Positions 2,512 to 63,900 are shown, numbered from the stretch's first letter. The stretch is DNA of 64,000 nt from Amoebophrya sp. A120 (GCA_905178155.1 CAJINV010000004.1:8832411-8896410); one strand, 5' to 3'. The notes: generated by a model not told the origin, from the sequence alone. A program made the numbers and translations.

Positions 2512-5500
2512 ATGCCCGTGACCGTCTCGGGGGAAGTGGGCGGCAGCCTCCAAAGCGAGCTGCAGGAGATATTCGAGCACCTGGCGTCCTCCCTCCCCTA
2601 TTCTGAGTAAAAACGGGCCCACCCCAGAGTTGTCATGCAAAATCTGCATGCCAAAAAATAGAAATTTTCTCATGCAGACCCCATGAGAAGCATTGTCTAA
2701 TCATGTTTTGGAGTTTGTGATACTAGAATGAGCATGATGTGCGGGATCTGTGATGCTGCTGCACTAAGAAAAAAGGACTACACTATTGGGGCAAACTTGT
2801 CATGCGAAACAACCACAGCTGGTTGACTTGTCTAGCAGATTTCCCATCTTGATGACCCTGGTGTGGGGACAGTTTTCCCCACGATACCCCCGATGACTTC
2901 CACACCACGACCGCCCAACAGGCGCTGGCCGCAGCCAAGGGGGACGAGGACGAAGCGGGTTCGGTGGAGGAGCACCGGCGACGGCTGGTCGAGAAGGAGA
3001 TTTTTCTGCAGCTCGGCAAAAAACTGGTCGTCAACTCGGGTTACAGCTGCTACGACCTCGTGGGCCCGCTGTTTCAGGTGGAGCTGCACCAGGAATTTCA
3101 ACGCGAAGTCGCCATCACGACCAGCAACATCGAGCAAAACGCCCCCGTGGAGGAGGAAAACACGGAGGAAGGGGAAGAAACTGCCGGCGCGGCGGAGAAC
3201 GCAGACGTAGATGCCGCGGCGGGAGAGCAGGAGGTGGCCGTGGCCGGGACGGAACAAACGTCCACCCAGATCTGCATGCGGACCAAGATGCAGAGCATTT
3301 TCCAAGAGCCGAAATACGCAGCCATGATGCGAAATGACGACCTCCGACCCTTCTACTGCAGTGGCGCCAAGCAGTCGAAACGACAACAGTACGTCTGAGA
3401 ATTTCGGGTTGATGAGGTTTGTCTCTCGCCTGCGAAATTCACTTCGATGAACTTGTGTTTTCCGCATCACAATTTCTCATTCACTGTGGTTATAGAGAAA
3501 TATCTTCAACTGATGATGTTCCAGGCGCCAAAGGGAAGAATACGCGGGCGTCGGTTTGAAGCGACTGACGGGGAACATGGCAAGTATCAAGAAGGAGTTC
3601 TACCGGCTGTTCTCGCACTTTGCGATTGAGTCAAAAGCGATCCATTATCCTGAGTAAAAACGTCCCCACCCCATAGTTGTCATGCAGATTTGCGACCACA
3701 GGAAGATTTGTAATGCGCATCCCCATGTGAAGCATTTTCAATCGTGTTTTGGAATTTGTAATGCTGGAAACAGGATGAGACAATGGATTTCTGATGCGGC
3801 TTCCCTTGCCAACCAGCACTACACTGCAGAGGGAAAGTTGTCATGCACAGCTCCCAAAACTTGGAGATTTGTGTCCCTAGATTCCCAACTTGACTATGGG
3901 GTGGGGATGTTTTTGCACAGGATATCCATCCAGAGCTGTTCATGTTTCAGGACGAGTCGGAATTGGACGCGAAAACGGTACTTGTTAATTTTGGGGTTTT
4001 TATTTGTCATGCTGGGTCGGAAAGAGAGTTTTTTTGTCATGCTGGATGGGAAAGTAAGAGGGATTGAATTTGATTTTGAATCGTTTCAAAATTTATTCCA
4101 GATACAACCCATCAACCAAGTTTTGACGCAAACGATGCTGCGGTATGAAAGTGCACAACTCCCCCTCCCCCTCATTTGGATGGCATCCGCAGCAACACAA
4201 GTCCTGGCAGCACACATGCAGCTTTTGCATGACAAATTTACGACTGATTGTAGTGCTGTTTCGGCTTCGGGAATCTGTCATGCATAGTAGTGGCACAAGG
4301 CAGAAGGTGGAGTTGGTGTTATGCATGAGAAATGAGAACGAGGGGGAGTTGTGCACTGTCATATGCGGTTCCGCGGTGACGTGACGCGCGTGAACGACCC
4401 GGCGAGCGGTGTGCTGGTGTATGAGGATGAGTTTGCCCTGTACTCCGCGCTGGACATTCTTGTGACCAAAACCCCGGCCCTGCGCAAAGCGGACTGCTAC
4501 CTCGTGCGGATCGACGACCCCAACAGCAAAATCGTAACCAGTTCGAGGCACCGCGGGCACGGGGGCAGCGTGGACGGCGGATCCTCCACTTTCGGCGGTA
4601 CCACGACAACGAACTCCCTATCCCTGGCGCACAACCCGATGCACCAAACGTCAACGGAAAATCTCGCACAGCAGCGCAGCCCCGGGGGACGGGAGGAGGA
4701 GAGTTCCATGCTGTTCGACGCGTCGAAGCAAGAGACCATGGGAACAAGCAAAACGCTGGCGGGGGGGAACTCCTACGGTACGCTGGCGAAGATGCAGAAG
4801 CAGAAGGGGCTGATAAGGAACCCCGTGCACAAAACCGCGCCCGGGCTGGGGTTGACGCAGGAACCACAACCGACGAGGAGTCAGCTGGACTCGACGTACC
4901 AAAATATGGACCCCGCAGAGCTGGACTCACCCGGAGACGAAGGCTTTGAAGTAGCGGGGTTGGGAGGTAATAAATAAGAGTGGATTTTTGTATTGCATAC
5001 CATGTGAAAGTGAAAGGAGAATATAGAACTCGTGGTGCAAAACGACAAACTGCAACTAGAACTTTGCGTGTCCTGGTCATGCATGGCCATATTCCAAACT
5101 ACAGGCGACTCCCCGACAAATCTCAACCGGCTTTACGAGCCCGCAGCGCATTTTTCCTTTCCCGCCAGCGGCACCAACACCGCTTCCGGCGCGTCTTCTG
5201 CCAGCGCCAGCAACTCAGCAGCCGGCGGGCAGGGCGGCAAGCAGGACATTGTGCAGCCGGTGTCGGTGTACCTCTGTCTCTCCGCGCACGTGTGCAAAAT
5301 CACGTTGTACACGGAGCAAGCCTACCTTCTGTACCAGAAGCAGGAGCAGAAGAAAAAATTTGAAGATTTGATGATCCTCGCCGGAACGATGAACGACGAA
5401 GTGCTCGTTTCGCAGGCGTTGGAAGTGATCCACAACGTGTTATGCACTGCAAATATGTCTGAGTCTGGAACATGGAAACTTGTCATGCCAGATCTGGATC

Positions 5501-8500
5501 ATGCAAAAATCTGTGTTGCAGGATTACCAAAAGCTGGCCACTTTTGACCAAGTTGACAGGGGATTTCTCATGCAGAATAGGCAACATGACAGAGGTCTGA
5601 TAGTATCTGTCCTGCAAGGTTCTGCATTCCAGACCTCATGCGTCATGTACCACATGCATCACAAGTTTGCATTTTTCCAGACCCAGACATTTTTGAAATA
5701 GATACGTGTGGCCGCACGACAAATCCTCCGCCAGCGGGAGCAGTCTGTCGCCAACATATGAGCTGCAAAAGTATCGTACTAGTATAGATTGCATTACAAA
5801 TTTCCTGTGCGTGAGAAATGCAAATAAAATCTGTAATGCGGATTTATCTTGACAGAGAAATTTGTAATGCGTGGGTGCAATTACGACGAGTAGTACGATA
5901 CTTTTGCAATGCATACAACAGTGGTGCACCAAATTGCCGCGAACGGGAACGCAAGCTTACTGTCCAAGATGTTCAAGCAGTACCCGCAGTTCATGAGGTA
6001 GTACGAGGAGATGGTGATCATGAAATTTGTGATCATGCTCCATGTACATCTGTGTTTGATCCACTTCTAGTTGTCATGCGAGATGCCGTACAAAACCTGA
6101 AACAACATTCAACAGCGCGATGCTCGTGACCCCGGACAACGGCGGCGCGCTCCCACTGATGGTGGCGGTGTACCAACAGCAACTGAAAACAGCGGTGCTC
6201 CTGCTCCGTGCCTTGGTAGAACTAGTGAAGCACCACGCGAAGGAGAAGATGGACTACGCGCAGATGCTGCGGGAGGATCCGGAGGCAACCGTAACGCCCG
6301 CGCAGTTGCCGCCGGTTCTGGAAACGCTCGTCGCGTTCTACCTGAAAGCGCAGCAGATCGCCAACCCGCTAGCAGGTGTGTCCGCGTCGAAACGCGCATC
6401 GCCAAAAGCGGCGAGGAACAGCGCAAATCAATCCGGAACGAGTACTTCTCTGAACACCAGCTCCATGAACAGTGTGCAGGAAGACGGCAGTATCCTCGAT
6501 CCCTGTGCAGTTTTACCAGAATTTTGGTACTGCAGCGATTTTGTTTTGGACAAGTTGGCGCAGGGCACGTACCCATTGGTACCGCTGGAAGAGGACGAGC
6601 AGATACACGCGACAAGGTTGAGCCAATTGCAGGAATTGTGGACGCTCTTTGGGGCGCTGGGATTCGGTATTGTTTGATAGATGAACTGTAAGTATGATTT
6701 ATTTGATTTGTCATGCAATTTGTAGTGCAAGATCAAGAAGGATTTGATCTTTATTTGGTATTTGTATTGCACACACTCACACTCCGGCGCACCACGCGAC
6801 CAAAGGTACCGCCAACAACGACCGCGTTACCCGCGCCGTGCAGCTCGAGCTGCTGCAGCTCGCCACCTATCAAATGCAAATATGTCTGGGTCGGAGAGGT
6901 TGCAAGACTTGTCATGCAGGTTTTCCATGACGCGCGAGGTCTGTCATCCACGACCTAGCATGACAGATTCTGTGCGACCTCTATCATGCCTGTCCTGCAT
7001 GAGAAACTGCCTCTCGGTTAGGTCAGAAGTGGAAAGCTTTTGGCACTCATGCAACACAGATTTTTGCATGATTCGGATTTAGCATGACAAGTTGCAATCT
7101 TCCAGACCCAGACATTTTTGCAACCCATACCACCTTCCTCGCGCTGATCAAAGCCAGAGACAGTTCGAAACGGACGGTATTGATGCTGGCGTGCAGGATG
7201 AAAAACCCGGTGCACGAGGGAATGGTAAAGTTCATCCTGGAAAAAGTACCCGACTGCGAGCTGAACGCACTGGACCAGTGGAACAAGTCCGCGGTCGACT
7301 ACGTGATGGAATCCAGCAGCACAAGTTCGGCGAAACTGTTGTTAGACTACGGTGCGAAAGACGCGATGGGCCAGGATGTGCTGCTCAGAGCAACATTGGA
7401 CAACAACGCGCACGTGATTCAGTTTCTCTTGAGCTACGTGCAGACCACCGGGGCGGCCGGAGGTAGTAATACTGGATCGATGTGATCTGTGTAGCGTGAT
7501 TGTTTGGTTGAAGGTTTCGTTCATTGAATAAAACTGAATCTCAATTCTGTCCGTACGCATAAGTATATTATCGAAGCATACTTAAAATGGAAAGAATCAA
7601 CCATCTCCCAGATTCGGACGCCGCTGGTTGGAGCGCGGGCAACGCGTTGTGGCTCCTTCGCCGTGGCGCACAAGCGACGGGCACGTTTTGCACCTGTTTC
7701 ATCCCGGCGAATTGTCAGGAGCTGCGGGTTCGCTACCCGTTGGTGTTCGGCAGAACCTTCCCGAGAATCAAGTCCCTCGTCCGAGACAGCAACGCGGGCA
7801 AGGTGTTAGAGGACTACCGGAATCTCAACGAAAGGTTAGAACAGGAGCAGAAGGAGCGGGAAGGGAAAAACATAGGGCTCATCCCCGTGCCGAAGAACCC
7901 GAAGGGGGAGTCTCTCGGTGCATTAACCGGTCTGGACGGGTTGGACATCTTCGTTATCAATTGCAAAAATGTCTGGGTCTGGAAAAATGCAACTTGTAAT
8001 GCTGTCTGCGGGTTCTAAAAATTAAAATATCTGTGTTGCATGAGTAGCAAGAGGACTCAATTCTTGGCACGCGAAGAGGGCATTTGTCATGCGTAGTTAG
8101 CATCAAGAAGCTCTCAAAAAATCTGTGATGCTAGCACCAGCATCACAGACCTGACGGGTCATGCAAAATGTGCATGACAGGCCCCGACTCTTCCAGACCC
8201 AGACAATTTTGCATTTGATATTCGTCGGCCGGGTGCAGTGCTGGATCTGCAAGAAAACGCACACCGGGTCGGAATCCTGGGTGGGGCCGGTCGCGTTGCA
8301 GCTGAAGTTCGAGGCGAAGAACGACGAGAAGGGCGACGACCTGCTCGCGCAGGCGGACGCCGCGAGGACGGGGACAAGGCCCGCCAGTCGGGGGAACAGT
8401 CCGCAGAAAGGGAACAAGCCGGGCACCGCAGAGTCGAACTCACCAAGTCCGAGGAGAAGTACGTCCTTATTTTGTGCTACAAATTATATGCTTTTCCTGC

Positions 8501-9147
8501 TTTTGCATCCATTTTCGTATGACAAATGTTTCCTCGGACCACCCACCCCTCCGGGCTTTAGTTGCACAGTTTGTTTTTAAGCATGACAAATGTTTCCACT
8601 GATACAGTTTTCATCATCCGCATGGCAAAATGAAATGAAAACGATCACATGAAAAGGTAAATCCCCCGGAGCAGCAGACGATGGTAGTGACGCTGCACCC
8701 ACGTTACGGCTTTTCATGCACCACGCCTGCTGTGTCGGCTTGGAAAACTACCTCAACGAGGAAGCTGCCAGAAGGGAGGCACAGATACCGAAGGTACTTT
8801 ATGTACTTAAGGCTGTTTTTTTATCAGGAGATAATGTGCAGGACCACAAACACAGTGTTTTTCTCGCACTTCTGCCGGACTCGTGATGTGTATAGAAGCT
8901 GCAACCACAAGTTCTAAAAAAAAATTCATCACAGCGTTCCCAAGGCGGTATCCCGAAAGCCCGCGCGCGGCAGCTGCTCAAGGACGCAAAGTCATTTGAG
9001 CACGAGTTTCGGGAGGTACCAGCGACGGCAACACGGACGTGGAAAACCTCCCGTGGGTTCGAGAACGTCGGGTTAAAGCCGCCGAGCTACGCCGGGGCAT
9101 CGGACAACCTTGGGTCGCTCAAGAAGGGGGAGTACACGATCCGGTGA
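2512..9147 (+). CDS. Multi-exon ankyrin-repeat protein (5' end uncertain)
   Basis: Removing 7 elements and GT-AG introns (3389-3524, 3978-4101, 4967-5026, 5998-6115, 6667-~6805, 7463-7611, 8459-~8677, 8794-8934) gives one open frame with ankyrin motifs TVVHQIAANGNASLL, KRTVLMLAC, NALDQWNKSAVDY and AKLLLDYGA; TGA ends at 9147. Confidence 0.72.
2599..2886. mobile_element. Introner-like element, family B
   Basis: TATTCTGAGTAAAAACGGGCCCAC...GTGGGGACAGTTTTCCCCACGATA; DR tcccc/ccccc; removal gives SLPDDF. Confidence 0.8.
3646..3924. mobile_element. Introner-like element, family B
   Basis: TATCCTGAGTAAAAACGTCCCCAC TIR; DR tccat; frame restored (AIHPELF). Confidence 0.9.
4144..4363. mobile_element. 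Introner-like element, family D
   Basis: TATGAAAGTGCACAACTCCCCCT...AGGGGGAGTTGTGCACTGTCATA; DR tgcgg. Confidence 0.9.
5441..5704. mobile_element. Introner-like element, family A
   Basis: ATGTCTGAGTCTGGAA...TTCCAGACCCAGACAT core; DR cgtgt. Confidence 0.9.
5757..5915. mobile_element. Introner-like element, family C
   Basis: TGCAAAAGTATCGTACT...AGTACGATACTTTTGCA; DR caaca. Confidence 0.9.
6868..7129. mobile_element. Introner-like element, family A (opposite orientation to 5441)
   Basis: Family A TIR; DR ccacc. Confidence 0.9.
7955..8220. mobile_element. Introner-like element, family A
   Basis: Family A TIR; DR ttcgt. Confidence 0.9.
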
Positions 9148-10159: not shown

Positions 10160-13100
10160 ATGGCGGCTGCAGCTTCATCTCTCCTCGCTGTACATCCCTT
10201 ATGCCAGTACACAACTCCCCCTCCCCCCCATCTGTGTAACATGAGCGGCAATACAAGCAGCACCCAGACTGCCGGTTTTGCATGACAAATTGGCACTGGA
10301 TTATAGTGCTATTTGGGCTACCAGAACTTGTCATGCAAATAGTGCCAAGGGGCACAGCCCGGATTAGGGATTTTGCATTACAAATGAGGGGGAGGGGGAG
10401 TTGTGGTTGTGCACTCTCATATCCCTCAACATCCAGCGTCTTCTCGGGTTCCCGGCGCGTCGCTTCGGATTTCCTGACCGCCGCGCAAAATGCGAGCGCA
10501 CTCTCCTGGTACCGGGAGTGGTCCCCGCACGCGTTTTTCAAGACGAAACCCACCAACGCGGATGTAAAGCGGTACTGCGACTTGTGGGTCGGCAGCCTGC
10601 TGTCTACTTCCGCGGCACCTTCTGGAGCAAGTGGACATACGGGAGGACGAGGCGGGGACGAGGAGGACCACACTATTGGTTCCACCCCTGGTGGTTCTAC
10701 TTCACGGCTTAATTCTGCTCTCGGAGGTGGAGTACCTGCGTTACCCACGACCAGTGCAATTGCACTTCCGCGGAATTATCAGAAGCCGGGAAGTAGATCT
10801 CCACTACAGGCTCCACCTTCGATCGACGGCACGAAGGCGCCCCAACTGCTCCACGCCGGCGAGGAGCTCGGCTGCTACTACCACCTGTCCCGCCTCATTC
10901 TCACCGCGACTCACGCTCCTGCGGCCGGGGTTCTCCTCCAGCGGGTGACGGAGGAGAAATTTGTGGAGAGGCAATGCGAGAATGACAGTGGGGGGAAGGA
11001 CATCTACCAACTGATCCGGATCTACGAAAACTGCTCCACGGCGATTATTGCGGCGAAAGCGAAAGAAAAGGGCGGTGGTCATCTTCCCGGAAGGAGTGGA
11101 GCTGGTAATGCTCCCTGTGCATCATCAACCAGCAGCGGAGGTTCTTCTTCTTCCCCAAGTAGAACATCGACTACAACTTGGGCATCCGAAATCGTCGTTG
11201 CGATCCAACGTTTTCTTCTACCCCGCGTAAGCGTATCGCAGTTCTCTGCGCAAAGTCTGGCGCTGGTGCTGCAGCATCTGAGTAAGCTCTGCGAAGTCCA
11301 CGACTTGCAGAATGTGGACATTTTTCAACATCTGATGTTGAAGGGAGACAGTTCTACTTCAGGAGGAAAAATAACTCGGGCGTCCGCGTCGTCGTCTCCA
11401 CCGTACTATCGTGGTAAAAATGATATTGTTCACCGCGCCGTCAACTCGTCTGACGTAGTAGAAGATTTCAGCAACAATTTCCATTTTATGCGACAGTGGT
11501 GCACGGCCGCCAGCTCCTGCCTGGACTCCTTCGCCACACGAGAGCTTGCGCACGGTGGATTCGCGTTCGCGAGGGTTTTGCAAACGACCATCGATGAGAA
11601 GCAACAGCGACGGAAAAAAACGCTGCTTTTCCAGGTGGATCTGGACCAGCATTCCCGGAAATTTGCAAAAAAGTGGTGCTCGGAGCTGCTGTTGCGATGC
11701 AGATCGGATAATTGGATGACGACGACAGCGTCAGATACTAGTAGTTCTAGTTGCACTTCTGTCTCGCATATGAACCATTCCGACCTGAACTCCCAAGCGG
11801 TCGCTGTGAGCTTGCAGACTTTGGGTCTGTTTGCCAGCTATCAGGTCTTCGTTCCGCAATCCGAAAGTAGTAGTACACGACCAGGGGGTAGTACTCGCAC
11901 TGACTCGCACGACGTCGGCGATGAGCAGAATCTTCGCGTCGCCCCTAGCACATCCGCAGCGGTGAAGGAGCTCTCTTTGCTCCTGGCTGAGAAATTTTTC
12001 CTCGCCAATTCCGATACCAAGGAAGACCCGCTTGGCCCGACGCATTTCATCGGCGCTCTGCACGCGCTGAGCCGGCTGTCTTTCGCGGAGTTTCTGTCGC
12101 CGGAAAAGAGCGGCGAATTCGCGTTAAGGTGGATTGCTGCGTACTTGGGCCGGGAGAGCGAGAAGTTCTCTTTGCAAAATTTGTCGAACGCGGGATATGG
12201 GATAGGGAGATTGCTGTCGACGAGCAGGTTTGGAGGAATACCATCACATGATGTGCAAGAAACACGACGATCTGGATCATCAGCGACAAGTGGCAAAAAT
12301 CTACTGAGTGTCGCAAATCACCCGCTTCAGCAGCAGCCGATCCTGCAGCCCGAGTTCCTGATTCGTGAGTTTCTAGCCAAGTGGCAAAGAGAGGTGGCAG
12401 AGAAGAATCTGAACCCGCTAAACATCCGGGACCTGACCAACATGATGGCAGGTGTTGGGAAGTGCGCGGAGATTCTGCACACGTTCACCTCGATGGGAGC
12501 AAACAAGGAGGGCGGCTGTCCTAGTGGCGCGGCGTCCGATGATTGCCCTCTCGAGGGCGTTGAGGATATTTTGGAGGACGACCACGCACCTGCGCAAATG
12601 AAAGAAGTCGATGCGCGTGAGTCACAGCAGTCCTGTTCACGACTGCTGCGCAAGACGATGAAGCTGTCCGGCCGTGGAGTGCTACGCCCACCGACGACGA
12701 CAAAGCCGAAGCCGCTGCTCGACCCAGACTTCCTAAAAAACTGGCGAACAACCGCTACGGAGAAAATATCTAGTTTCACCCCGCAAGCCCTGGCGCACAG
12801 TCTCAGCGGGTTGGCGAGCAGTGTGTGCGAGGACGTTTCTTCTACAGAAGATGATTATGACGGAGCTAAAGCTACTACTTCTGGAGGTACTAGAAGTTGT
12901 TCTGCGATTGGTGAAGAAGCTGCTGGTGTACTATCATCGTCATCATCGTCATCATCGCCCAACAACAAGGACATTGTTGCAGAAATCCAAACTTACCTTT
13001 CCGATTGGCACTCGCAGCTTTTGAAAACCAAACATACCTTCAACGACCAAGCGGTAAATGTGAGCCTCGTAGCAATACTGAAATTCCTGCAAGGAGCTTC

Positions 13101-15153: not shown

Positions 15154-18100
15154 ATGGGTCGCGCGGCCCGTGAATCCGAGGTCCGCAGGAGGACGGGCGG
15201 CGGGCCGGCGACCACAATTCAGATCGGGAAGAAGAAGCAACCGGAGCCCGAGGAGGAAAAGCCCGAAGAATCTTCGTCAGAGGATAGTTCCCAGTACGAT
15301 GACCTCCCCGGCTTCATTTCCGCCGGCATGCGGCAAAGGAGTAAGCCGCAGCTGGATCCGGACGAAGAGAAGCGAAAAGAGGAAGAGAGCGCCGCCTACA
15401 TGCAGAAGATGATGGACATGAGCAAGGACATGATCGCGCAGCGGGACGCGGAAGACTCGAAGAAGATCCAGGAATCCAGCAAGGCGTTGAGCGGCGCCGC
15501 GCGGCAGCGGGAGACGGAGATGCAGACGTTTTTGCAGGAAAAAACTGACGACGTCGATTTGCAGCACCGACAGAAAGTCTTGGAGTCCCTGACGGCGGAG
15601 GCGCACGTGGACAAGAAAGTGGTAGAATTCGACAGCGAATCGGATCAGGAGATGGTGGACGCGGCGGAGATCGTCAAGGAAGCGCAGCGCAAGATGGGGA
15701 TCGAAGTGTCCGAAGTGCGGGTATGCAGTGCAAAAGCATCGCACTAGTAGGAATAGCATGACAAATATTTCCAAGAAGAAAAATAGAATTTGTATTGCTG
15801 ATTCACCTAAGATAGGAGATTTGTCATGCATCACAGCAATTGCTACGAGTGCAATTATACTTTTGCAATGCATAGTGGGAAACGGTGGACATTTTACGGG
15901 ACAAGCTGATGGTGAAGAACACGTTTTGGGGCCGGTTGATGTATCCTGTGCAAAAGTATCGTGCTCGTACTACTTGCGTTTATGCATTACAAATCTTTTT
16001 CTTTAGGCAAATCCGCATTACAAATTTGATTTGTAATGCTAAGGCAATTTGTAATGCAATTTATATTAGTACGATGCTTTTGCTTTTGCAATTCATATGA
16101 TGTTCCAAAAAGCGATGGAGGAGAAGAGGCGGAAGCACCCTGATTTCGTCCACCCCTTCCCCAAAACCTACGAACGGGTGAACGACTTGAAGTTCGAGGG
16201 CTGCGTCGCCTTTTTCATGGTCTTCAACGGCGTGACCCTGGCGCTGGGGGCGGAGCGACACCCGGACGTATCAAATGCAAATATGTCTGGGTCTGGAAAC
16301 TTGTAATGCTGCGTTGGGAATAGTGAATGCCCTGTGAAGATGCACAGCCAAGCATGAGAAATATCTGCGCTTCTTCCTGGTGCGTTTTTCGCATGACAAA
16401 CTGCGTTTTTGCATGACAGGCAAAAGGATCTCTTCTTGGACACGCATCACAAACTTTTTGGTCATGCCAGACAAGCATGACAAATCTCGCTATCTTCCAG
16501 ACCCAGACATTTTTGCATTTGTTAGGACGGGTACCCGGTGTATTTGACCGTTTTGGTATCCAAAGGAAAAAACCGCCCTTCCCATATCAAAACGAAATTT
16601 CTGATGCTGGAATTGTGTACACAAATCCGAGCTGTCTTGCTGGAAAGCACTGCAGGCCCATACTAAGTGTGAGGAGAGAGGTTTTGGCCTAGGCACTTAG
16701 CATGAAAAACGTCCGCGCCGTAGGCCCAACAGCATGACAGGCCGCCTGCGCAATGCCGCGGAGCCTGCGGAGTTGCCTTCTTGCAAGACAGACGCCATTT
16801 GTGGCCACAAATCAGCATCACAAAGATTATACTCTTGCAGCATGGGGAGGGGGGATGTTTCCTTTTGATATTTGGAGCACATTTTCACCTTCGTCTTCGT
16901 GGTCGAGGCGACGATGCGGTATCTGGCGTTCGGGTGGCCGTGGCTGTTGGAATTCTACAACGCCGCGGATGTGTTTCTCATCTTCTTCACCGGCGTCCTT
17001 GTGATGTGGATCCTGGAGCCGATGGGCATTGAGTCCGAGTTCATGCGCAACTTTTCCATCCTTCGGTTACTCCGCTTACTGAAACTGATGCGGACGGTAT
17101 CCAAGAAAAAAACTTTGTTCGTGTAACTTTCGTTGGCTGACAGCATCACAAATTTGCTCTACATAATAGAGAAAGCCTGTCATGCGTGGCTTGTGAGGGA
17201 AAACACACACGAAAAGAGGACTTCGTGACTGTCTGGCATGACAGGCGTAACTCTGTTGCATGTTCTGCATCACAGAGTTAAGTACACTTACGCAGTTTTT
17301 TTCTCGCGATAGACGGTCCGCGCGGTGCCGGAATTCGAGCTCGTCTGGCGGTTGATTCGCGTGGGCGTAAAGTCCGGGAAGCTGCTCATGTGGGCGATCT
17401 ATGCATTGCAAATATGTCTGGGTCTGGAAAAATGGAGCTTGTATTGCGTGTCGAGGATTCCAGAAAAATCTGTATTCCATAAAAGCAACAAAAGCGCCGT
17501 GATGAAAAAACGCAGTTTGTATTATGCGAACTAAGGATGAGAAAGGGTCCAAAAGAAATTTGTTATGCTGCACTGCTCTTGCAGGCGTGGTCACTCACGG
17601 CCATTCAGCATCACAAATTTCCAGACCCAGACACTTTTGCACTTGATACGATCATCGACACGACCTTCATCATGTTCCTCTTCGGGATTTTCTTCACCGT
17701 ATCCACTGCAAAAGTATCGTATTCGTATTGCAATCATGCATTACAAATCTTTTTCTCAATGTAAATCCGCATTATTTTATTTCTCATCATGCTGAGGAAA
17801 TTTGGAATGCATTCATACGAGTGCGATGCATACTTTTGCAGTTCATATACCGTCTTGGTCGGAAAGGCGGACGCGTTTGTGCACGACGACACCATCTTAT
17901 CCAAGAAAAAAATTGTGTAAGTGTAAATCTGTGATGCAGAACATGCAACAGAGTTACGCCTGTCATGCCAGACAGCCATGCAGTCCTCTTTTCATGTTTG
18001 TTTTCCCTTACAAACCGCGCCTGACAGGTTTTCTCTGTCATGTAGAGCAAATTTGTGATGCTGTCAGCCACAGAAAGTTACACTAACACAGTTTTTTCCT

Positions 18101-19348
18101 TGGATACATCCTGGATCTCTTCGGCGACGTCCCCCGGTCCGCCTTCACCGCGTTTCAGGTCGGCACCCGGAACCACTGGACGGACATCGTGCGGCACGCG
18201 CGGGACCGGTCCTCCTGGGCCTGGCCGTTGTCCATGCTCTGCATCACGAGCCTGAACCTGGTCATGTTTAATTTAGTGACGGCCTCGATGATTATGTCGG
18301 TGTTTGACGAAACCAGTTCCGACAAGGAGATCAGAAGGAAAGCGGCCGAAGCGAAGAAGGCCATGCACTGGAAGATTCTGGTGAACATCTTCAAAGCGAT
18401 GGACGAGGACGATTCCGGCGAGGTTTCGGCCCAGGAACTGGACCTATGCATAGGAAAAATCGATCTGGGTCTGGAACAGTGCAAGTTGTGATGCTAAGAC
18501 TGGAGAAGACAAAAATCTGTGTTGCATAGACGGCAAAAGATAAGTACCCACTTCTTAGAACCACGCAGAGGGCGGGATTTCTCATGCGGAATAGGGATTA
18601 AGGCGCTCTTGCGCAAGCTGGGATGCTTGTGGGCGCATGACGGGCCAACTTTGTGTTCCACGAGATGCGACGACAAACTTTGCTTTCGTCCCGACCCAGA
18701 CAGATTTGCACTTGATATGGCCATGCCATGAACAACAATCCAGCGCTGCAAAGAAGGTTGAACGACATCAACTTGCATCGGGTACTATACACTTTTCGTA
18801 TTTTTTCAGTGGAGTTCTTGTAATATTTCATGGTTTGTATGCAGAGTCACTGTTTTCCGCTTGAGATGCTGCTGATCTTTGAAAAGTCATTTCAGTTTTT
18901 TTCGACGCAAAATATAGATTCTGAAAACAAAACCACTTCCCAGGCCGCCATGGGAGATCTGTGGAGCATCCTCGACGTGAACGGCGACGGGGTGCTCGAC
19001 ATGGAAGAGTTTCTCGAGGGTATGCGGCAGATGGAGGGTCCCGCGAAGTCCTACGACCTGATCAAGATGAATGTGAAGTGTTCCGGGCTGCAAAAACGGA
19101 TTCATAAACTGGGTCACTGGTTCATGGCCACCATCCCGGAAGCCAAGCGACTCGCCATGCTGGTCGACAACACGCACGGCAACATGATGTCGCTGTTCGG
19201 GCTGTTGCGGCCGCTCGAACGGGACGTGTTGCGGATCGTCCGCCACATGGCGGAGGAAAACGAGCTGAAGACTGACGAGTTTGGCATGCCCACCATCGAC
19301 GATATCAGCTTCGGGGAAAAGATAACGATCGAGATGCCAGCGGGCTGA
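15154..19348 (+). CDS. Single-domain voltage-gated cation channel (Ion_trans) with C-terminal EF-hands
   Basis: After removing 9 elements and intron 18782-18943: S1 FEGCVAFFMVFNGVTLAL, S4 RLLRLLKLMRTVR, pore FQVGTRNHW, S6 NLVMFNLVTASM, EF-hands DEDDSGEVSAQE and DVNGDGVLDMEE. Start codon uncertain. Confidence 0.85.
15722..15874. mobile_element. Introner-like element, family C
   Basis: Family C TIR; DR gcggg/gtggg. Confidence 0.85.
15942..16097. mobile_element. Introner-like element, family C
   Basis: Family C TIR; DR tgatg. Confidence 0.9.
16269..16524. mobile_element. Introner-like element, family A
   Basis: Family A TIR with right end TTA; DR ggacg. Confidence 0.9.
16557..16870. mobile_element. 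Introner-like element, family F
   Basis: TATCCAAAGGAAAAAACCGCCCTTCCCAT...ATGGGGAGGGGGATGTTTCCTTTTGATA; DR tttgg. Confidence 0.88.
17098..17311. mobile_element. Introner-like element, family E
   Basis: TATCCAAGAAAAAAAC...GTTTTTTTCTCGCGATA; DR gacgg. Confidence 0.88.
17400..17648. mobile_element. Introner-like element, family A
   Basis: Family A TIR; DR cgatc. Confidence 0.9.
17700..17847. mobile_element. Introner-like element, family C
   Basis: Family C TIR; DR caccg/taccg. Confidence 0.87.
17898..18106. mobile_element. Introner-like element, family E (inverted relative to 17098)
   Basis: Family E TIR; DR catct/catcc. Confidence 0.88.
18445..18717. mobile_element. Introner-like element, family A (diverged)
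   Basis: TCTGGGTC/GACCCAGA core; DR ggacc/tggcc; removal gives ELDHAMNN. Confidence 0.8.
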
Positions 19349-47935: not shown

Positions 47936-48597
47936 ATGTCGGCAAACTTGACGCAGACGGTTCTGACTCTGAATAAGGAGTTCGACAAGGCTCAGGACAA
48001 CCTGCACTCGATTGCTATGGAAGTGTCAGAATCGAAATTGACAAAATCGAAAAATTTGTGATGCACAAAATCGATGTCAGTTGGAGCCTCAGTCTCCAAG
48101 TGGCGCATGACAAATTTCGGGAGCACCCAAATCCAGTTTGTCATGCAGTTTGGGCGAAGAAGACTCCTCCTGTCATGCTACCCTGGCAGCACATTTTATA
48201 ACCCTAAACAGGCTCACAATCGGTCTCATTTGCCTGCTCCCCAATACAGGCCTTCAGTGCCCTACATTTTACGCATCACAGATCATTTCGATTTTCTTTG
48301 TTGATTTCGATCCTGACAGTTCCATAATTGCCCAGCTCTGCAGCCAAGCGGAAGAGCGGATCCGCAAGTCGCAGTCGCTGCAAAATGACTTTGCACGGTA
48401 CAGGATATTGGTCTGGTGTTTGTCAACTACATACGAGATGAGTACACATGCATGGCAGTATTTGATGTCATGCAAGTAACTAAAGCTATAGCTCTGTCAA
48501 AAATTCTCTCAGGCAATTCCACCGGCTCTCTGAGCAGACGCGGCAGATCATCACCGCTGCAGAGTCGCTGCAAGACACGGATCCGACACTGAAGTGA
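47936..48597 (+). CDS. Small (~76 aa) coiled-coil protein, missed by the ORF track
   Basis: MSANLTQTVLTLNKEFDKAQDNLHSIAQLCSQAEERIRKSQSLQNDFARQFHRLSEQTRQ..., after removing one element and a GT-AG intron. Confidence 0.7.
48016..48326. mobile_element. Introner-like element, family H
   Basis: TATGGAAGTGTCAGAATCGAAAT / ATTTCGATCCTGACAGTTCCATA; DR attgc. Confidence 0.88.
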
Positions 48598-54127: not shown

Positions 54128-56028
54128 ATGGTCGTGACCCGTTCCCCCCTCCACCCCCGAACGCTCGCGAAGGCGCTGACTGTCCTCGCACTCACGACTA
54201 CTCAGCACCTGGTAGATGCGAAGAAGAAGGGGAACAAGAAGAAAAATGCGAAACCCAGCTACTCAGAAGATAACATACCACCCGGCGGCGCGAACTACGA
54301 CGACATTCTTGGCGGTGGGGGAAAGGGAGGACTTGGGGGCCTCGGCGGACTCGGCGGAGACGACGGGTATGGGGATTTGTTCAAGCCAGAAACCAACTGC
54401 CCAGTTTTCACGTGCCCAAAAGGACAGAAGCCGGTGCAGAAGGGTGGGAGTAAAAAGAAGGACTTCCCGGTGGTTTACGGTTGCGACGCGAGTTCCTTTG
54501 ACATGATGATGATGCTGGATCCGAGTAATCTAAACGGCGCGAAAAAGGGGGGAACCAGGGAAAAATTGTGGAAGGTATAATAAAGTAGAGCTGCTGCAAA
54601 TTGTTAGTGCAATTGGAGGTTGCGATCATGCATGATTGACAAAACACAACTCATACTATGCCTGATGCTTTTTCCGCATCGCGATCTCATACACTACGAA
54701 AAATTATCAGTGTTGTGTCGGGCGGGACATCGGACAGCAAACTTGCGTATCAAATGCAAAAATGTCTGGGTCTGGAAGAATGCAAGTTTGTCATGCTTGT
54801 CTGGCATGACTCGAGAATCTGTGTTGCATAGCCACGAAGAGGCCCTCTTACCTGTCATGCAAAAACGCAGTTTGCCATGCGGAATACGTAAGACATGGCA
54901 GCCAAAAAATTCGTCATGCGTAGCTGCGTATTGCAGTGCGTTTATCATTCACTTTCAGCATTACAAGTTTCCAGACCGAGACATATTTGCAATCCATATT
55001 GCGGCAGAACGAAGAAAGAGATAGAGGACGACTTTGGCACATGTACAAACAAGAAATGCAAGGGAGATAAGAACTGCAAAATGAACGCACAATTCGGTTC
55101 CATGATGTCCGGGGGAATCAGTGGCGACAAATGCGACGAGTATAGGGATATTTAAACAACTACGTGAATTTAAATTTTTTTCTATTTTGTCATGCGGTGC
55201 ATGCACGAGCACGAATCTTCTGAGCAGTGTGTCAATCAATCTGTGTAGCTGCATCATGTTTAATACATATACAACATTATCATCCAGGTACAACAAATCC
55301 CAAGCAGCGAACTGCGAGTGCGTTCCGGAGGATGACACGCAAGACTCCTTCAAAAAAGCTTTGAAGGGTTTCTACGGGATTTTTGCAAAAGAGAAACTGC
55401 CGAAGGACGGCGGCGAAATCGACGACCAGTGGATGTCCGAAACGGTGTACAAAAGCTTCAAGAAGGGACAAGAGCCGAAGATCTGGTAATTTTTGATTAA
55501 AAACTTGACAAAATTGACACGAATGGAAACGAAGTAGTACCACAGCATGACAAAGAATAAGAAAAACACTTCTTTTGGGTGGAAAAATTTCTGCATTTGA
55601 CAAAAAACTCCTTAAAAACAGGAACGCTCTGTTCACAAAATACTCCTCCAATCTCCGGCACGAGGACAAGCCGAAGCCAAAATACGACTACCCGCCCCCC
55701 ATGGACGAGGACCTGCCGGATATGAAAACCTCCAGTAGTTCTGCGGATGCGAAGAAAAACACAGAAAAACCGGCAAAAACCTCCAGCACATATGAACTGC
55801 AAAAGTATCGTACTCGTAGAAATGCATGACAAATTCCCTCAGCGTGAGAAATATAATTTGTCATGCGGATTTAGCTTGAGACGAAAATTTGTAATGCATG
55901 ATTGCGATTACTACGAGTGCGATACTTTTGCACAGGATAGCACAACCACCACCACGATGCCCGGGGATGACGACTTTGGGGCGACGCTTGGGGGGGACGA
56001 AGAACTAGTCGAAGATGTGGAGTTGTAA
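54128..56028 (+). CDS. Secreted group XII phospholipase A2-like protein (probably inactive)
   Basis: Signal peptide; CPVFTCPKG..VYGC..KCCVGRDIGQQTCGRTK..F..C...C..YNKSQAANCEC pattern; GT-AG introns 54575-54710, 55140-55287 and ~55487-55621; ends EDVEL. Confidence 0.75.
54748..54998. mobile_element. Introner-like element, family A
   Basis: DR ttgcg. Confidence 0.9.
55791..55939. mobile_element. Introner-like element, family C
   Basis: DR gcaca. Confidence 0.9.
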
Positions 56029-56719: not shown

Positions 56720-59700
56720 ATGGAGCCCTCCAGAAACACCCCCTCCTCCACCTCCTCCTCCGCCGCCGCGCCACCGCCTCCGGAGCCAAAATGGGTCGTA
56801 TCAAGTGCAAAAATGTCTGGGTCTGGAAGATTTCTAGATTTGCCATGCATATTTTCCATGAGCAATGATGTCTGTAATACATGCCGCAGCATCACAAATT
56901 TTTAGAGGGCTTTGTGATACCTCTACCGCATGAGAAATGCCGTCTCCGCGTAGGACAAACCCGACCCCTATCCTTGCTGGTCATGCAATACAAATTTTTT
57001 TTAGAATCCACAGACAGCATCACAAGTTGTGACCTTCCAGACCCAGACATTTTTGCAGTTGATAGGTCGCGAAGATGAGCAATTTTGCGATCCAATACAA
57101 CCTCACCTGTGCCTCTGCCGCACTCGCTGTGATAAGAGATGCAAACGCTAATATCAATCCGAGCGAGACTCCACCGCCCGGGGCGATTCCCGCAGAGCCC
57201 GCCTGGGCGTCCCAATTCCTTCTCGCCGCTGTCTTCGCCGGGACGCTGGTCGGGATGCTCACGATGGGCTACCTAGGCGACAAACTCGGAATCCAGACGG
57301 CTATGATCTTGACCCAGGGCATCACCGTGCTCGCCGCCTTTTGCAACGTCTTTGTTGCGCCGTTGTGGCTCGGGAATGGGGGCGGGGAAGGACCGGTGGT
57401 GGAAAGGAGCGGAACACCAGCAACATCAAGTTTTGACCCGGTACTACAAACGCATCCTCAAGCCGGCGCGGAGGGATTCTATTCCGGTTTCGTTTTCGCG
57501 AGGTTCTTCCTAGGCGTCGGTGTTGGCGGGATGTACCCACTCTCCGCTGCGAGTTCCGTTGCTTCGATGAGCACAACTACCGCCTCAAATAACGAAATAA
57601 ACCCTCCTGATGAACCGCGCACCAACTACCCCTCCGCGATTGCGAAGCAGGCCGGGAAAGCGTTTCTGTGGCAGACGCCGGGCGTGATTGCGCCGTACCT
57701 GGTGACGTTGCTGGTCTGCGATAGCGCGATCGACAGCAGCGGGGGTGCAGCGATTAGTACTTCGAAGAACTGTATCAAAGAAAAAAAGTTCGTCACGATC
57801 ACTCATGCGCATTCTTGCAATACAAAATTGTTTGTCATGCGTAAAAATGCATCACAGCCAAACTTTATTAGGGATCTCCCTAGTGTTTCTGCAATACAAG
57901 GAAAGTTTGTGATGCTGAGAAAACTTCTAATGCAAAACCTGCAAGTTAGTGACTGTGACAAACTTTTTTCTCTCCATAAACTGGTCTGTTCTGTCCCAGT
58001 TCCAGACTATTGTCGGACTGGGGATGGTGCCCTGCTGTCTGGTGCTCGGGAGGCACTGCTACGCGGTTTGGGCCGTCGGTGGGAGAAGAGGGAATACTGC
58101 AACAGGGAGCGTGAGGACGGTGGGTACTGCAACTGCTGGTGCAGCGCAGCAAGTGCAACCACGACCAGCGGGCCTCGAGATAGCACGCGATGTGGAGCTC
58201 GGGCATTCAAACTTATGGAAGTGAAGAAAAAGTAGTATGTTGACAGGGTTTTTGTCATGCTGAAGCTGAGTGAACTGTTGTGTCGAGGAAAATAGAGGAG
58301 CGAAAACGCCAGATACACTGAGGAACAAAAATAATCATGACGCATTATAAATATATCCTGTTACAACGCTACACGTTCACTAGCATATGGCACGCTTTCA
58401 GCATCTTCAGCAGCTGCAAACGCGCGAGGACGTGATCAGCAGCGCCAACAAGGAGCAGTGTACAATCCGAATCTGCGGGAGGAGCTGTTGTCCACAAGTG
58501 CAGCGGGGGCCCATGCACACCAGTCGCAGTCGGGTAGTAGATCGGTTCTTCAGTCACCTTCAGGCAGTTCCTCGTCCAGCAGCATGGACAAAAGGCTTCT
58601 CCTTCTCCTGATCGGCAGCGGCGGCACCTGGTTTCTGTTCGACGTTAGCTTTTTATGAGAGTGCACAACCTGCCCCCTCATTTGTATGGCATGAAAAGCA
58701 ATACAAACAGCACCATACGTGGAGCCTGTGCATGACAAACTCATGTGCCGAATGTAGTACTGTTTGGGCTCCCAGAATCTGTCATGCAAACAGTACCACA
58801 GGGATGCACTTGAATTTGGGATTTTGCATGACAAACGAGGGGGAGGGAGAGTTGTGCACTGTTATACTTTTACGGCACATCCGTCTTCGCTCCGTTCATC
58901 ATCGTATGAAAGTGCACAACCCCGCCCCCTCCCCCTCATTTGTATTGCATGAACAGCAATACAAGCGTCAGCAAGAATACAGGTTTTGCATGACAAATTT
59001 GCACTGGATTGTGGTGCTCTTTGGGCTTCCAGGATTTGTCATGCAAACAGTGCTACAAGGCAGCAGCTGGATTTGGAATTTTGCATGACAAATGAGGGGG
59101 AGGGGGAGTTGTGCACTGTCATACATCGAAAAGATTCTCCCACAGGCATCCCTTCAAGCGGTCTGCTGGCAAACGGTGTTGTCGAATCTGGTCGGCGTGG
59201 TTGGTTCCCTCCTCTCGGTCGCGCACGTAAGCAGTACCAGCTGCCGACAGGGACTGAGGCTCGGGTTTGTGCTTTTAGCGACGGCTTTTTTTCTCTTCTC
59301 CGTCGTTGAGCATTTCAAGATCGAGCTGCCGCCACTTGTTTCTGGGGATCCGAAGAAAACGGAGGGGTTACTGGCGCTGATCCTCTATTACGTGCTGCTT
59401 GTTTGCTGCAACTTCGGCCCGAACGTCGCAACCTACGTCTTGCCCATGGTGTGCTTCCCGAAAGAGTCGCGCGTGACGTACCACGGCCGGTCAGCCGCGT
59501 GCGGGAAAGCGGGGGCCTTTCTGGGGACGCTGGTCTACCCGTTGTGTTTGCCGGTCGTGGGTGTGCCGGGGATCATGGGGATTCAAGCGGTTGTGAGCTT
59601 CCTGGGGTACGTTATTGCGGAACTGTTTGTGGGCGAAGGGGAGGGAGGTGGTGAACAGACCGGGAGTGGTGCTCCTGCGCGAGATGTAGCACTTGTATCA

Positions 59701-60937: not shown

Positions 60938-63900
60938 ATGACGGGAGACGAACGCGGGAGCGGGTCCCGCCAGAGGAAGAGAATGTGCGGGTTCTGCAAT
61001 GTTTTTACGACCCTGGTCGTTTCCCTCCACCTCCTCCTCGCCCCCACCTCACCAGTCTCTGCCCGGTCCTGCCCCGGTCGCACCTACACGGTGAACGACT
61101 ACATTGAGGCGGACTGTGTCACCTACGAGGGCCAACTCCGGTTCGAGGGGATCTGGGGCTTGAAGGAGATCAACATGCCGCGGCTAAAGCGCGTCCGCGG
61201 GGGGCTGTTCATCGAAGACAACCCGGATCTGGAGTCCATCTACATGCCACTTTTGGAGCGAGTGGACCACCGGTTGGAACGGTCCATCATCATCCGGAAC
61301 AACGGGCTGGGATACATATTGACCACGACGCCCCCGCCGCAAGTCTACAAGACGACCACCGCGGCGCCCAGTACCACTTCAACCACCAGTACGTCGACAA
61401 CGACGACGAGTCTGACGCTCTTCCCCATGTTCCGGTCCCTCGGGCAGGTGTTCGGCGGCAAAAACGCGGAGAAACATGCGAGGATGTTGAGCGAGGAACA
61501 GAAAACTTCACCAGCAAGAACCAGTACGGGAAGTGAAAGAGAGACAAGTGAACAACAAGCGGGGCATGCGCATGAAGATATTGATCCAACGCACTACCCA
61601 GATGAAAAGAACAATAAACCTGCAGACGGTGCTGGTCTTCAGCCTGGTCGTGAACAACAAGCTTCTTCCTCTCCTCGTGCTCTCACAACTACACAGATGG
61701 GTTTCACCACGGCGGAAAATCCGCTCGGGCAGTATACCTACAGCACCCGGCGGTGGATCACGCGGTCGAACCCGATCGCGAACAGCATGAATTTTCCCCG
61801 AGTCACGTACATCAGCAACAACATCGAGATCACGAACAACATGAAGCTCCAGTACTTGTTAATGGCGTATGGGAATTCCTTAAACCCGCTAGCAAACTAC
61901 TTCAACACGCCACGAACCGGTCCGCCGATCGACTGGCCGAGAGTCGGGGAGCGAGACGGAGACGGGAACTTGTTGACAACCGAAACGGCGGTTGTCGCCG
62001 GCCCCGGGCAAGTTCTGCTCGCGACGGCGGGGCCACCAACCCTTTCCGGTCCGAGTTTGGTGGTGTTTGAGTCGAATTCCGATGATGGGAGCACAACGTT
62101 ACCCCCGACAACGACCACGACCACCACCACAACGTTGGAGTTCGCTTTTATCGGGGTCACCGCGCAGGACCGGACGTCGATTATTTTGCACAGCAATCCC
62201 GATTTAGTCTTCATGAACATTGGCGGGAATGTCCGGGGGGAGGTGCATATTCGGGAAAACCCGGCGCTCCGCTCCATGTCGATGGACATGATGAACTCCA
62301 TCCGGATGACGGTGTTCATTCACGACAATCCGGTACTGAACGGCATCAATTTCCCGGCTTTGACCGAAGTTTTGTCGACCGGGCTGCACTATCAAATGCA
62401 AAAATGTCTGGGTCTGGAAACTTGTGATGCTGGGTGGCGTATCATGAGGAGGCCACAAGTGCTCGCTCAGCATGACAAGTTTCTGAGCTTCTAGATGTTG
62501 CCTATTCTGCATGACAAACTGCGTTTCTACATGACAGAAAAATGGCGCTCTTGGGTAACGTGCATGACAGATTTGAGAGTCATGCCAGACAAGCATGACA
62601 AACATGCACTCTTCCAGACCCAGACATTTTTACACTTGATATGCACTCTTTGGTCTTGCGGGATAACGGAATTGCCTGTACCTACTCCGGCTTCATGCGG
62701 TTCCCGTCGTTGCAACGGATTTCCGGGATGGTGACGATCACGGGGAACCGGTGGTTTGGGGTCATCGAATTCCCCTCCCTGGTCGAAACGGGGCCCGTCC
62801 CGTCGGACGGATACAGGCGGTTAGAGGATGGACATCAAAAAGCAGCGGTGGGGTCCGCAACTGAAACCATCAGTGAGCGGAGACAAGAACAGCACACGAC
62901 GCCACCCAAGAGCAAAAACAAATCTTCGACCTCCAAGGTTGTAACTACTACCCGTGGTAGCAAAAATGTTGACCGACATAACCATCCCAACTCCCTCGAC
63001 AATCGTCGTGGCGGGCAGAAGGTGCCGGATTTGCTTTCTCCACCGGATTGGCGGTCCGGTTTGATGTCAGAGGGGGAAAAGGAGCAGCGCAGACTGATGT
63101 TTTCCGAAAGAGAAGAGCTGGAGCTGGAAAAACACGCTGCACTAGAACGCGAAAAGTGGGACGCAGAAATTGAAATAGCGGAAAATAATGAGAAACAGTT
63201 ATTTGGTGGTCGTGTCAGGCAACTCACCACCGGCACGCCCTACACCACCGGGAAAGTGTCCGTCAATTCCGTCACTATCACGGATAACCAGCGGTTGTAC
63301 TACGTGAAATACTCCGGGATTCTCTACGGCAGCATGCAGGTCTCCGCCCAGTCGGACTTGGTGAACATCGATTCGCCGGATCTGCGCGAAATCCGGGGCA
63401 TGCTGTGGATCGAGAACAACGCGCAACTCGCGAGGGTTTCTCTAGCGAATTTGCAAACGCTCGGCGACACCTTCGACTACAGCTTGAAATTTGTCAGTAA
63501 CGGGCAAGGCGCGCAGGAGCGGACCGGGTTTTTTCAAGCACATGTTTTACGGTCGACAACCCGTGGGATTGTGTTCGCGGAGAACCAAAACTTTGCGAGA
63601 TTGCAATTTCCGCAAATGCAATCGACGGGGGAGACTTTGGGCTCATCCGTTTTCGTTCAGAACAACAAGGACCTTTCCCTATTGGATTTCAACGGCGAGA
63701 TGGAGGGCAACGTGGTGATTCATAACAACCCAGATGTCGAATCCATCCGGTTGGAGGGTCTTGCGAAGGTCAAGAACGACGGGAATCTGTACTTCACGGA
63801 CAACCAAGCGCTTCACACGGCGAATTTGGTGCAGTTAGTGGAATTGACCGGTGATTTAGTCCTGGGTCGGAACGGCTTGCTCGCCCGCGCGCACGGATCG

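Follow-up and report, generated by a model that had tools for sequence, protein, structure and literature searches.

The introner elements published for Amoebophrya sp. A120 are probably short non-coding transposons with TAT...ATA ends, which duplicate five bases on insertion, were likely mobilized by one transposase, and are predicted to leave the transcript by a hairpin-guided removal without GT-AG borders. This is our best reading of a 64,000-nucleotide stretch of its DNA (GCA_905178155.1, CAJINV010000004.1:8832411-8896410), in the following called the window. Directly visible are the anatomy of the elements, the 5-bp duplication in pairs of filled and empty sites, the loss of element length plus five nucleotides in the gene models, and this loss in both orientations. 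The window is nuclear DNA of A120, as exon translations matched three annotated A120 proteins at 100% identity.

Farhat 2021 (PMC7789003) described introner elements among the non-canonical introns of strains A120 and A25 and brought forward the hairpin idea. Direct repeats (DRs) were given there as 3-5 nt with variable length and position, inverted repeats lay 1-5 nt from the splice sites, and family-specific inverted repeats are not given. One of the legends in its supplement illustrates a case whose direct repeats are 5 bp long; moreover, the paper reports no U1 small nuclear RNA, and its gene models were based on RNA-seq and transcripts. A 2024 review, in the part available to us, likewise gives "3-5 nt, high variability" for Amoebophrya repeats. 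Gozashti 2025 (PMC12130899) lists 58 A120 families, mostly DNA transposons with terminal inverted repeats (TIRs) and of unknown superfamily; in parts 15-16 of 33 of its Dataset S2, the automated target-site duplication (TSD) is 2-6 or missing, and for one family it is 5 "by manual inspection". A preliminary description of the window, made from its sequence, had overstated the newness of the system, because Farhat 2021 already contains the elements, a 5-bp example and the hairpin, and Gozashti 2025 the TIR-transposon introners of A120. As the phenomenon is already published, the present work refines a known system, to which the shared end rule adds real and useful precision.

To define the elements, we used an end-blind scan in which identical 5-mers had to flank 60-1700 nt with a TIR score of at least 12 of 30, the end letters being free. 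At a repeat length of k=5 it found 27 elements in the window, and all 27 started with TAT and ended with ATA. Other repeat lengths gave 206 (k=2), 41 (k=3), 38 (k=4), 4 (k=6), 0 (k=7) and 1 (k=8) matches, which were mixed and mostly of low complexity, with no single dominant end type; three shuffles of the window gave 0, 0 and 1 matches at k=5. The preliminary claim that every element combines a 5-nt DR with TAT...ATA ends was hence confirmed by the end-blind elements, and at k=5 only. A relaxed scan (TA ends, at most one DR mismatch, TIR score at least 9) yielded 43 matches, of which 37 were retained. The other six (at 15754, 15844, 22486, 39096, 39190 and 45003) were discarded as inner sub-palindromes of retained elements. 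Protein mapping and homology added five (18445-18717, 28873-29122, 29514-29798, 45741-45849 and 58214-58387), so that the window holds 42 elements of 109-322 nt, about 16% of its length, besides one truncated copy (34260-34557) and two fragments. Of the 44 elements in about eight families described earlier, the families stood: clustering of 38 elements gave eight groups with 14, 6, 6, 5, 3, 2, 1 and 1 members; the element count was replaced by the census just given. TIRs plus 5-nt DR, the introner anatomy of Farhat 2021, were present in 38 elements. DRs were imperfect in 11 of the 38, and the third base or end varied at 43788 (TAC), 44824 and 45741 (TAG), 16269 (TTA) and 28873 (ATG).

We took a second sample from metagenome contigs by searching for the 20-letter inverted-repeat pattern of family A. 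More than 150 stretches were found, and 153 loci with 619,262 bases were taken. These loci represent a related genome; one of them (L001) is 91% identical to the ion-channel gene of the window over 1079 nt. The end-blind scan of the 619 kb gave 340 distinct elements at k=5, among them 305 that started with TAT; k=4 gave 317 and k=6 gave 43, and TAT was absent from their common ends. All 35 non-TAT matches at k=5 were of low complexity or fell on palindromes inside family A ends. A candidate second class with a 4-nt DR and AAT ends (47 matches at k=4) was rejected, the 14 of 47 inspected being the inner TGCA palindrome of family A TIRs or low complexity. The 305 TAT elements of the relative formed 24 clusters, 14 of them multi-copy, began with TATC, TATG or TATT throughout, were mostly 100-350 nt long, and had DRs of nearly even base composition. 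DR length thus did not vary at random in these 619 kb, where 305 of 340 elements followed the 5-nt rule; random variation had been named in the preliminary description as grounds for refutation.

Comparison of filled and empty sites showed how the repeats arise. Exon 18108-18443 of the window is uninterrupted, and the corresponding stretch of L001 carries three complete family A copies and a fourth that is cut by the contig end. The flanks of these insertions are 96-98% identical to the window. They carry the duplications GGTCG/GTTCG, GCGGG/GCGCG and GAACC/GAACC, where the window has a single GGTCG, GCGGG and GAACC. In locus L009, each of two tandem paralogs has a copy missing from the other, with CGAGC and GGAGG duplicated. 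Exactly five bases were duplicated in each of these five filled/empty pairs (three in L001, two in L009), and we therefore regard the 5-nt DR of the preliminary description as a true TSD. It also follows that the window exon is the form of the relative's sequence with element plus one repeat removed. The five pairs and the 305 perfect 5-nt DRs of the relative agree with non-autonomous class II (TIR) transposons of fixed TSD length, and the eight families of the window and 24 clusters of the relative with multi-copy TIR families lacking coding capacity. Two further empty-site candidates were set aside, as the match in L022 overlapped itself and the pair in L057 was too diverged to read. On the reverse strand of L001, three family A insertions crowd into about 100 bp of a single exon (behind window positions 18162, 18204 and 18259), and another is found near 19299, a clustering that suggests local hopping or a hot spot.

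The families have more in common than their outermost bases. Among 76 ends compared, T1 and A2 were found in all, T3 in 73, C or G at position 4 (S4) in 73, G at position 9 in 58, and A at positions +11 to +15 in 57-73, and the inner TIR arms beyond these shared ends were family-specific. All 38 elements contained one to six copies of TGT[ACG]ATGC or its complement, with the wider consensus AAAYTTGTSATGC. This motif occurred 122 times in 9.47 kb of elements and never in 7.99 kb of exons; outside the elements it was found seven times in 2.9 kb of plain introns and 17 times in the other 43.6 kb. In the relative it was present in 14 of 14 multi-copy families, at 12.1 per kb inside and 1.47 per kb outside the elements, and in an alignment of 152 family A copies the best conserved inner blocks coincide with it. 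Family B has its motif copies on a single strand throughout. Since TATS ends, the A-run and AAAYTTGTSATGC arrays are common to all, we conclude that the families are related, and the earlier view that they are unrelated inside has to be dropped. Also, plain introns 3389-3524, 3978-4101, 5998-6115, 6667-6805, 8459-8656 and 23846-25242 carry TGT[ACG]ATGC, seven copies against about 0.3 expected by our own chance estimate. Possibly they are old elements that gained GT-AG; alternatively, the motif could serve some role linked to introns.

From their sequence, the AAAYTTGTSATGC arrays resemble subterminal binding sites of one transposase. The mobilizing enzyme may thus be pictured as a single DDE-type enzyme, possibly integrase-like, that would bind the arrays and cut the TAT ends with a 5-base stagger. 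One mobilizer with a 5-nt staggered cut, as proposed in the preliminary description, is well supported by TATS ends, A-run and AAAYTTGTSATGC in all families; the transposase itself was not found. An autonomous partner with the same ends was not detected in the 64 kb and 619 kb, which is weak evidence, as the whole genome lay outside the search. Long copies with TAT/ATA ends and 5-nt DR gave three matches of 1.7-30 kb in the window, all of them pairings between ends of separate elements. Four matches of 0.7-12.5 kb were obtained in the related contigs: that of 6.2 kb (L072:3554-9750) is host DNA rich in family A copies, and the remaining ones (834-1104 nt) are non-coding. Transib elements, with CACWATG termini, and Ginger2-type elements, with TGT...ACA termini as in Ginger, produce 5-bp TSDs. 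We did not assign the elements to either, as 73 of 76 ends read TATS and no transposase was found. Integrases of the long terminal repeat (LTR) type typically produce duplications of 4-6 bp. For long A120 introner families, Gozashti 2025 (PMC12130899) reports TIRs together with open reading frames (ORFs) like LTR-element integrases, and it also states that Ginger termini and TSDs are missing from the long A120 elements. These integrase-like long families are the best lead to the mobilizer.

We next consider the elements as introns. The three annotated proteins, i.e., P0001 (1239 aa, ankyrin repeats), P0003 (671 aa, ion channel with EF hands) and P0004 (720 aa, PHO84-like MFS transporter), were mapped on the window DNA, and all cut pairs that reproduce each protein exactly were listed. 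Their orthologs in strain A25 are 44-51% identical. Their introns number 30 in all. Nine of these are of the plain GT-AG kind and have no TIRs, and 20 of the other 21 are TAT...ATA elements, in each of which the removed length equals element length plus five (L+5). Homology bears on the same junctions. The Pfam cobW profile runs across elements 22477-22755 and 22838-22987, the exon pieces matching profile positions 1-78, 83-104 and 107-174. In P0001, six of seven junctions are gap-free against the A25 ortholog; in P0004, three of five lie inside motifs conserved in ten homologues, including Symbiodinium PHT1, and DVS[F]YG of the transporter is gap-free across the ten aligned homologues. Two junctions of a gene at 28-30 kb are colinear with its ortholog P0027. 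When all 42 elements were excised as L+5, together with 11 plain introns, 40 of 42 junctions had 90 nt or more of open + strand frame on each side. The earlier statements that the elements act as introns and that excision of an element with one DR restores conserved motifs are borne out by the 20 of 21 non-GT-AG introns, by the further colinear junctions, and by the continuous cobW profile and gap-free DVS[F]YG.

It could be argued that the gene models are wrong, the elements being retained and the "restored" frames forced by the annotation pipeline. The annotated intron 58214-58386 would suit this explanation, as it fits no rule and lies in a region beyond the homology check. Retained elements, however, would break every one of these genes, the junctions are inside conserved motifs (the cobW profile, DVSFYG in Symbiodinium PHT1, the A25 orthologs), and exon 18108-18443 is the empty form of three insertions in the relative at 96-98% identity. 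We consider wrong gene models hardly credible.

Over the six equivalent cuts of each element, GT-AG was available in one of 38, GC-AG in none, AT-AC in five, and none of these pairs in 32. The claim that most elements lack GT-AG is in keeping with these 32, which offer neither GT-AG nor AT-AC; moreover, 37 of 38 are introns without a GT-AG option. Assignment to U2-type spliceosomal introns by GT/GC...AG ends was rejected (1/38 GT-AG, 0/38 GC-AG). Plain introns of the element-bearing genes start with GTA and end with AG in 11 of 11 cases.

Copies of both orientations are present in the + strand genes (9:6 for family A, 3:4 for B, 4:2 for D, 1:2 for F), and the copies with verified removal include both; any signal must therefore sit in the symmetric ends. 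The motif of family B is one-stranded and the family is removed both ways, so its motif arrays are unlikely to be RNA signals. The five copies of family C (4144, 10200, 36974, 58654 and 58905), unlike those of A, B, D and F, all have the same orientation to the genes. DR identity appears dispensable, as element 18445, with the decayed repeat GGACC/TGGCC, is still removed as L+5. Minimum-energy folds contained 18-42 pairs between the first and last 45 nt in 39 of 39 cases, and in 26 of 39 the outermost pair joined U1 with the last A.

Precise excision from DNA in transcribed nuclei, in the manner of ciliate internal eliminated sequences or piggyBac, would give mRNA that never contains the elements. 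Loss of the element with one duplicate is the exact outcome of precise excision by a transposase, filled and empty sites exist between related genomes, and the motif arrays look like DNA-level sites, because those of family B are one-stranded and the family is removed both ways. Against this, the elements are found inside exons in two independent DNA assemblies (the window and the metagenome loci), and old copies such as 18445 and 28873, with decayed ends and DR, should serve a transposase badly; nevertheless, the protein lacks 18445. Also, we know of no separate germline and somatic nuclei in dinoflagellates. Farhat 2021 (PMC7789003) moreover treats the elements as RNA-seq-validated introns. 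Excision from DNA is therefore very improbable in our view.

Mismatched DRs indicate where the RNA would be cut. In the proteins, the left (5') copy was kept at 2599, 15722 and 18445, where the cut offset t is at least 1, 2 and 3, respectively, and in L001 both mismatched duplications have a left copy identical to the empty site, which is what an intronic right copy would lead one to expect. That the 5' repeat copy is kept in five of five informative cases is suggestive, not proof. If one fixed rule holds, the 5' cut would be placed 0-2 nt ahead of the first U, and the 3' cut would follow the last A at a distance of 3-5 nt. We propose that the inverted ends pair in the transcript and would thereby bring the exon ends together. 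The 5' cut would then lie at the first U or one base upstream of it, and the 3' cut four to five bases beyond the last A. With these cut positions the 5' repeat copy would remain in the mRNA. Because plain introns start with GTA, a cut one base before the element gives N^UAU (the caret marks the cut), so that U and A occupy +2 and +3 as usual. As catalyst we would favor a spliceosome without U1, which may read N^UAU like the local GUA donor; this is the weakest step of the proposal.

A dedicated non-spliceosomal endonuclease and ligase could instead remove the same transposons from RNA, reading the terminal hairpin and cutting at fixed distances, as proposed for euglenid nonconventional introns. 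This would suit the 32 of 38 elements without known splice dinucleotides, the removal of both orientations, the end-to-end helices in all 39 folds, and element 18445, whose decayed DR is no bar to L+5 removal. Moreover, euglenid TIR introns leave as full-length circles and not as lariats (PMC11282704), and Farhat 2021 (PMC7789003) also argued for a distinct mechanism. However, no candidate enzyme is known, the helices lack wobble asymmetry, hairpin 58214 has a perfect U1-A helix and is cut elsewhere, and TA at +2 and +3 of the N^TAT cut resembles the local GTA donor. We regard an endonuclease with ligase as the less likely catalyst, which nevertheless deserves attention. A further-reaching version is more doubtful still: all TAT-ended families might form one unclassified superfamily with strict 5-bp duplication and AAAYTTGTSATGC sites, and a ruler-like, hairpin-reading RNA activity might, irrespective of sequence, cut at the first U and five bases downstream of the last A. 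If true, nuclear pre-mRNA splicing would have a third form in such ruler-like removal, which might derive from the transposase itself.

Several points weigh against hairpin-guided removal of transposons spread by one transposase. Removal is predicted here from published gene models and homology. The TAT...ATA hairpin at 58214-58387, identified by mapping of P0004, breaks the +5 rule: it has no DR, and its annotated intron (58214-58386, 173 nt) is one base shorter than the element. It is located in a lineage-specific insert that homologues do not check. U1 and the last A did not form the outermost end-to-end pair in 13 of 39 folds. Mismatches between the TIR arms in sense RNA were G-U in 34 and A-C in 43 cases; G-U is thus not in excess, and selection on an RNA helix is not indicated. 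The kept left copy rests on five cases, three direct and two indirect. Pfam profiles detected no transposase, integrase or reverse transcriptase in 150 + strand ORFs of the window and 93 related-contig ORFs of at least 300 aa. From the absence of transposases in A120, Farhat 2021 (PMC7789003) argued against transposase-driven spread.

The + strand carries the long open frames and every recognized gene of the window. The other elements are distributed over the window as follows. In the ankyrin-repeat gene, the family B element 2599-2886 (DR TCCCC/CCCCC) is removed as L+5, with the left DR base kept in the mRNA. All other elements of this gene were found by the end-blind scan and by mapping of P0001. 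These are a second family B element at 3646-3924 (TCCAT), whose junction is gap-free against the A25 ortholog, and five whose junctions were examined in the homologue alignment: 4144-4363 (family C, TGCGG), 5441-5704 (A, CGTGT), 5757-5915 (D, CAACA), 6868-7129 (A, inverted relative to 5441, CCACC) and 7955-8220 (A, TTCGT). Element 10200-10421 (C, TCCCT), from the end-blind scan, has its junction supported by the open frame only.

In the ion-channel gene, 15722-15874 (D, GCGGG/GTGGG) is removed as L+5 in P0003 with the left DR copy kept. Mapping of P0003 together with the relaxed scan gave 15942-16097 (D, inverted, TGATG), 16269-16524 (A, inverted, GGACG, right end TTA), 17700-17847 (D, inverted, CACCG/TACCG) and 17898-18106 (F, inverted relative to 17098, CATCT/CATCC), and mapping together with the end-blind scan gave 16557-16870 (E, TTTGG), 17098-17311 (F, GACGG) and 17400-17648 (A, CGATC). 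Element 18445-18717, which belongs to family A, is also present in the related genome (L001).

The CobW gene contains 22477-22755 (B, inverted, CAAGA) and 22838-22987 (D, TCTTC), the latter with the junction ...ETTGLADPAPVAQTFF^VDE..., and an inverted family A copy at 23504-23755 (CCTGA) from the end-blind scan, across whose junction the frame is open. The long plain intron of this gene (23846-25242) has an insert of about 750 nt bounded by a 39-nt direct repeat (24488-24526 and 25240-25278) that duplicates the acceptor site and exon start; the insert contains two copies of a unit of about 150 nt (24658-24801 and 24969-25121).

For the gene at 28.2-29.9 kb, a database search gave P0026, a read-through ORF of a related strain, and the ortholog P0027; the A120 gene model was not among its results. 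Colinear with P0027 are the junctions of 28488-28770 (A, ACGTG; LFQMNV^AEML) and 29161-29439 (B, inverted, GAAGT; KKEK^YRARMPAGL). The frame fits L+5 at 28873-29122 (B, inverted, CCGGG/CCGGA, right end ATG), whose DR mismatch, at position 5, would distinguish cuts at t=4 and t=5. Element 29514-29798, a family A copy with flanks GCAGG/GGACG that was added by protein mapping or homology, reads G^TAT...ATA^G and has a GT-AG alternative of L+2 in the same frame as L+5. It may mark a route from element to ordinary intron.

The truncated copy at 34260-34557 is a decayed family B element whose left terminus is missing, recognized by clustering and homology. Element 36974-37237 (C, GCGCA), from the end-blind scan, lies between open frames of 369 and 1041 nt. 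Supported by the open-frame test and the end-blind scan are 39087-39365 (B, inverted, CGCGG, with a perfect 30-nt TIR), 39433-39744 (E, AATCC), 43477-43737 (A, AAACA) and 48016-48326 (G, ATTGC), and by the open-frame test and the relaxed scan 39813-40080 (A, CTCGC/ATCGC), 40182-40446 (A, inverted, TCGCT/TCCCT), 43788-44109 (E, GATGG) and 44824-45102 (B, CCGAG). The two family A copies in 39813-40446, of opposite orientation and 101 nt apart, form a palindrome of 634 nt with arms 93% complementary. A short palindromic element of 109 nt (45741-45849, TAG...ATA, flanks GGACG/GAATG) is likewise supported by the open-frame test. Two end-blind elements have short flanking frames: 54748-54998 (A, TTGCG; 81 and 150 nt) and 55791-55939 (D, GCACA; 240 and 81 nt).

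In the transporter gene, 56799-57064 (A, inverted, GGTCG) is the one element of 38 with a GT-AG option; it is removed as L+5 in P0004, and its junction is conserved in ten homologues. End-blind scan and P0004 mapping also gave 57773-57978 (F-like, single-copy, AACTG), 58654-58866 (C, CTTTT), which holds the conserved DVS[F]YG junction, and 58905-59123 (C, CATCG), with homologue alignment. Removal of the end-blind element 62390-62641 (A, inverted, TGCAC) joins open frames of 1563 and 1353 nt, both with Recep_L_domain matches.

Elsewhere, window 1-2000 (63% GC) is without TAT elements, and frames that overlap on both strands encode G/R/A-rich repeats. Region 20001-22000 has a GC skew of 0.275, an AT skew of 0.448 and long overlapping frames encoding K/R/E/S-rich repeats. 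The translations of 31079-31684, 33449-34228 and 36603-37085 are alike (...LLACC.LLRCPFSAAA...) and resemble tandem paralogs; the surrounding 7.5 kb contains a single decayed element. No Rfam families were found in the window.

Amoebophrya removes thousands of introns that lack splice signals, and the question of how it does so becomes testable with a sharp definition of the substrate: a UAU...AUA hairpin next to a 5-base repeat, in either orientation, with the 5' copy kept. The definition tells the region of the cut sites, the introns that are informative, i.e., those with mismatched repeats, and the ends required of the mobilizing enzyme. It also offers a simple rule by which such introns can be located where standard gene finders fail, namely in Syndiniales genomes and marine metagenomes. 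The strict 5-nt rule corrects the published picture of variable 3-5 nt repeats. Our literature search found no later paper on the removal mechanism in Amoebophrya. In the portions of Farhat 2021 and Gozashti 2025 considered, with the supporting information (SI) appendix text of the latter and Roy 2023 left aside, we found no statement of a strict 5-bp rule with TAT ends for all families, of motif arrays, of the kept 5' copy, or of filled and empty sites.

Ciliate internal eliminated sequences and piggyBac have TA-type ends and are removed from DNA with one target copy, the target being TA or TTAA. Here, in contrast, the target is five nucleotides of any sequence, and removal is at the RNA level by the published account. 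Among the closest known systems, that of Farhat 2021 concerns the same genome and the same objects, with inverted repeats at the ends, direct repeats at the borders, a hairpin model, no GT-AG and no internal transposase. In contrast to those elements as published, the DR is 5 nt beside TAT...ATA, clear families share end and internal motifs, and insertion is shown by filled and empty sites. The A120 families of Gozashti 2025 (PMC12130899) are likewise TIR DNA transposons that create introns, tens per gene, whereas a common TAT end or internal motif was not found stated in the text and Dataset S2 rows considered. Introners of Micromonas, Aureococcus and Polarella (Gozashti 2022, PMC9860276) are also intron-creating transposons with TSDs and often TIRs, but they carry or co-opt GT and AG, whereas 32 of 38 elements here have no known splice dinucleotide pair. 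Euglenid nonconventional introns (PMC11282704) share non-GT-AG borders, pairing TIRs, TSD-like repeats, a likely origin from miniature inverted-repeat transposable elements and an unknown mechanism; they differ in lineage, in their end motifs (CAG/CTG at +4 to +6), and in that circular excised introns were shown there.

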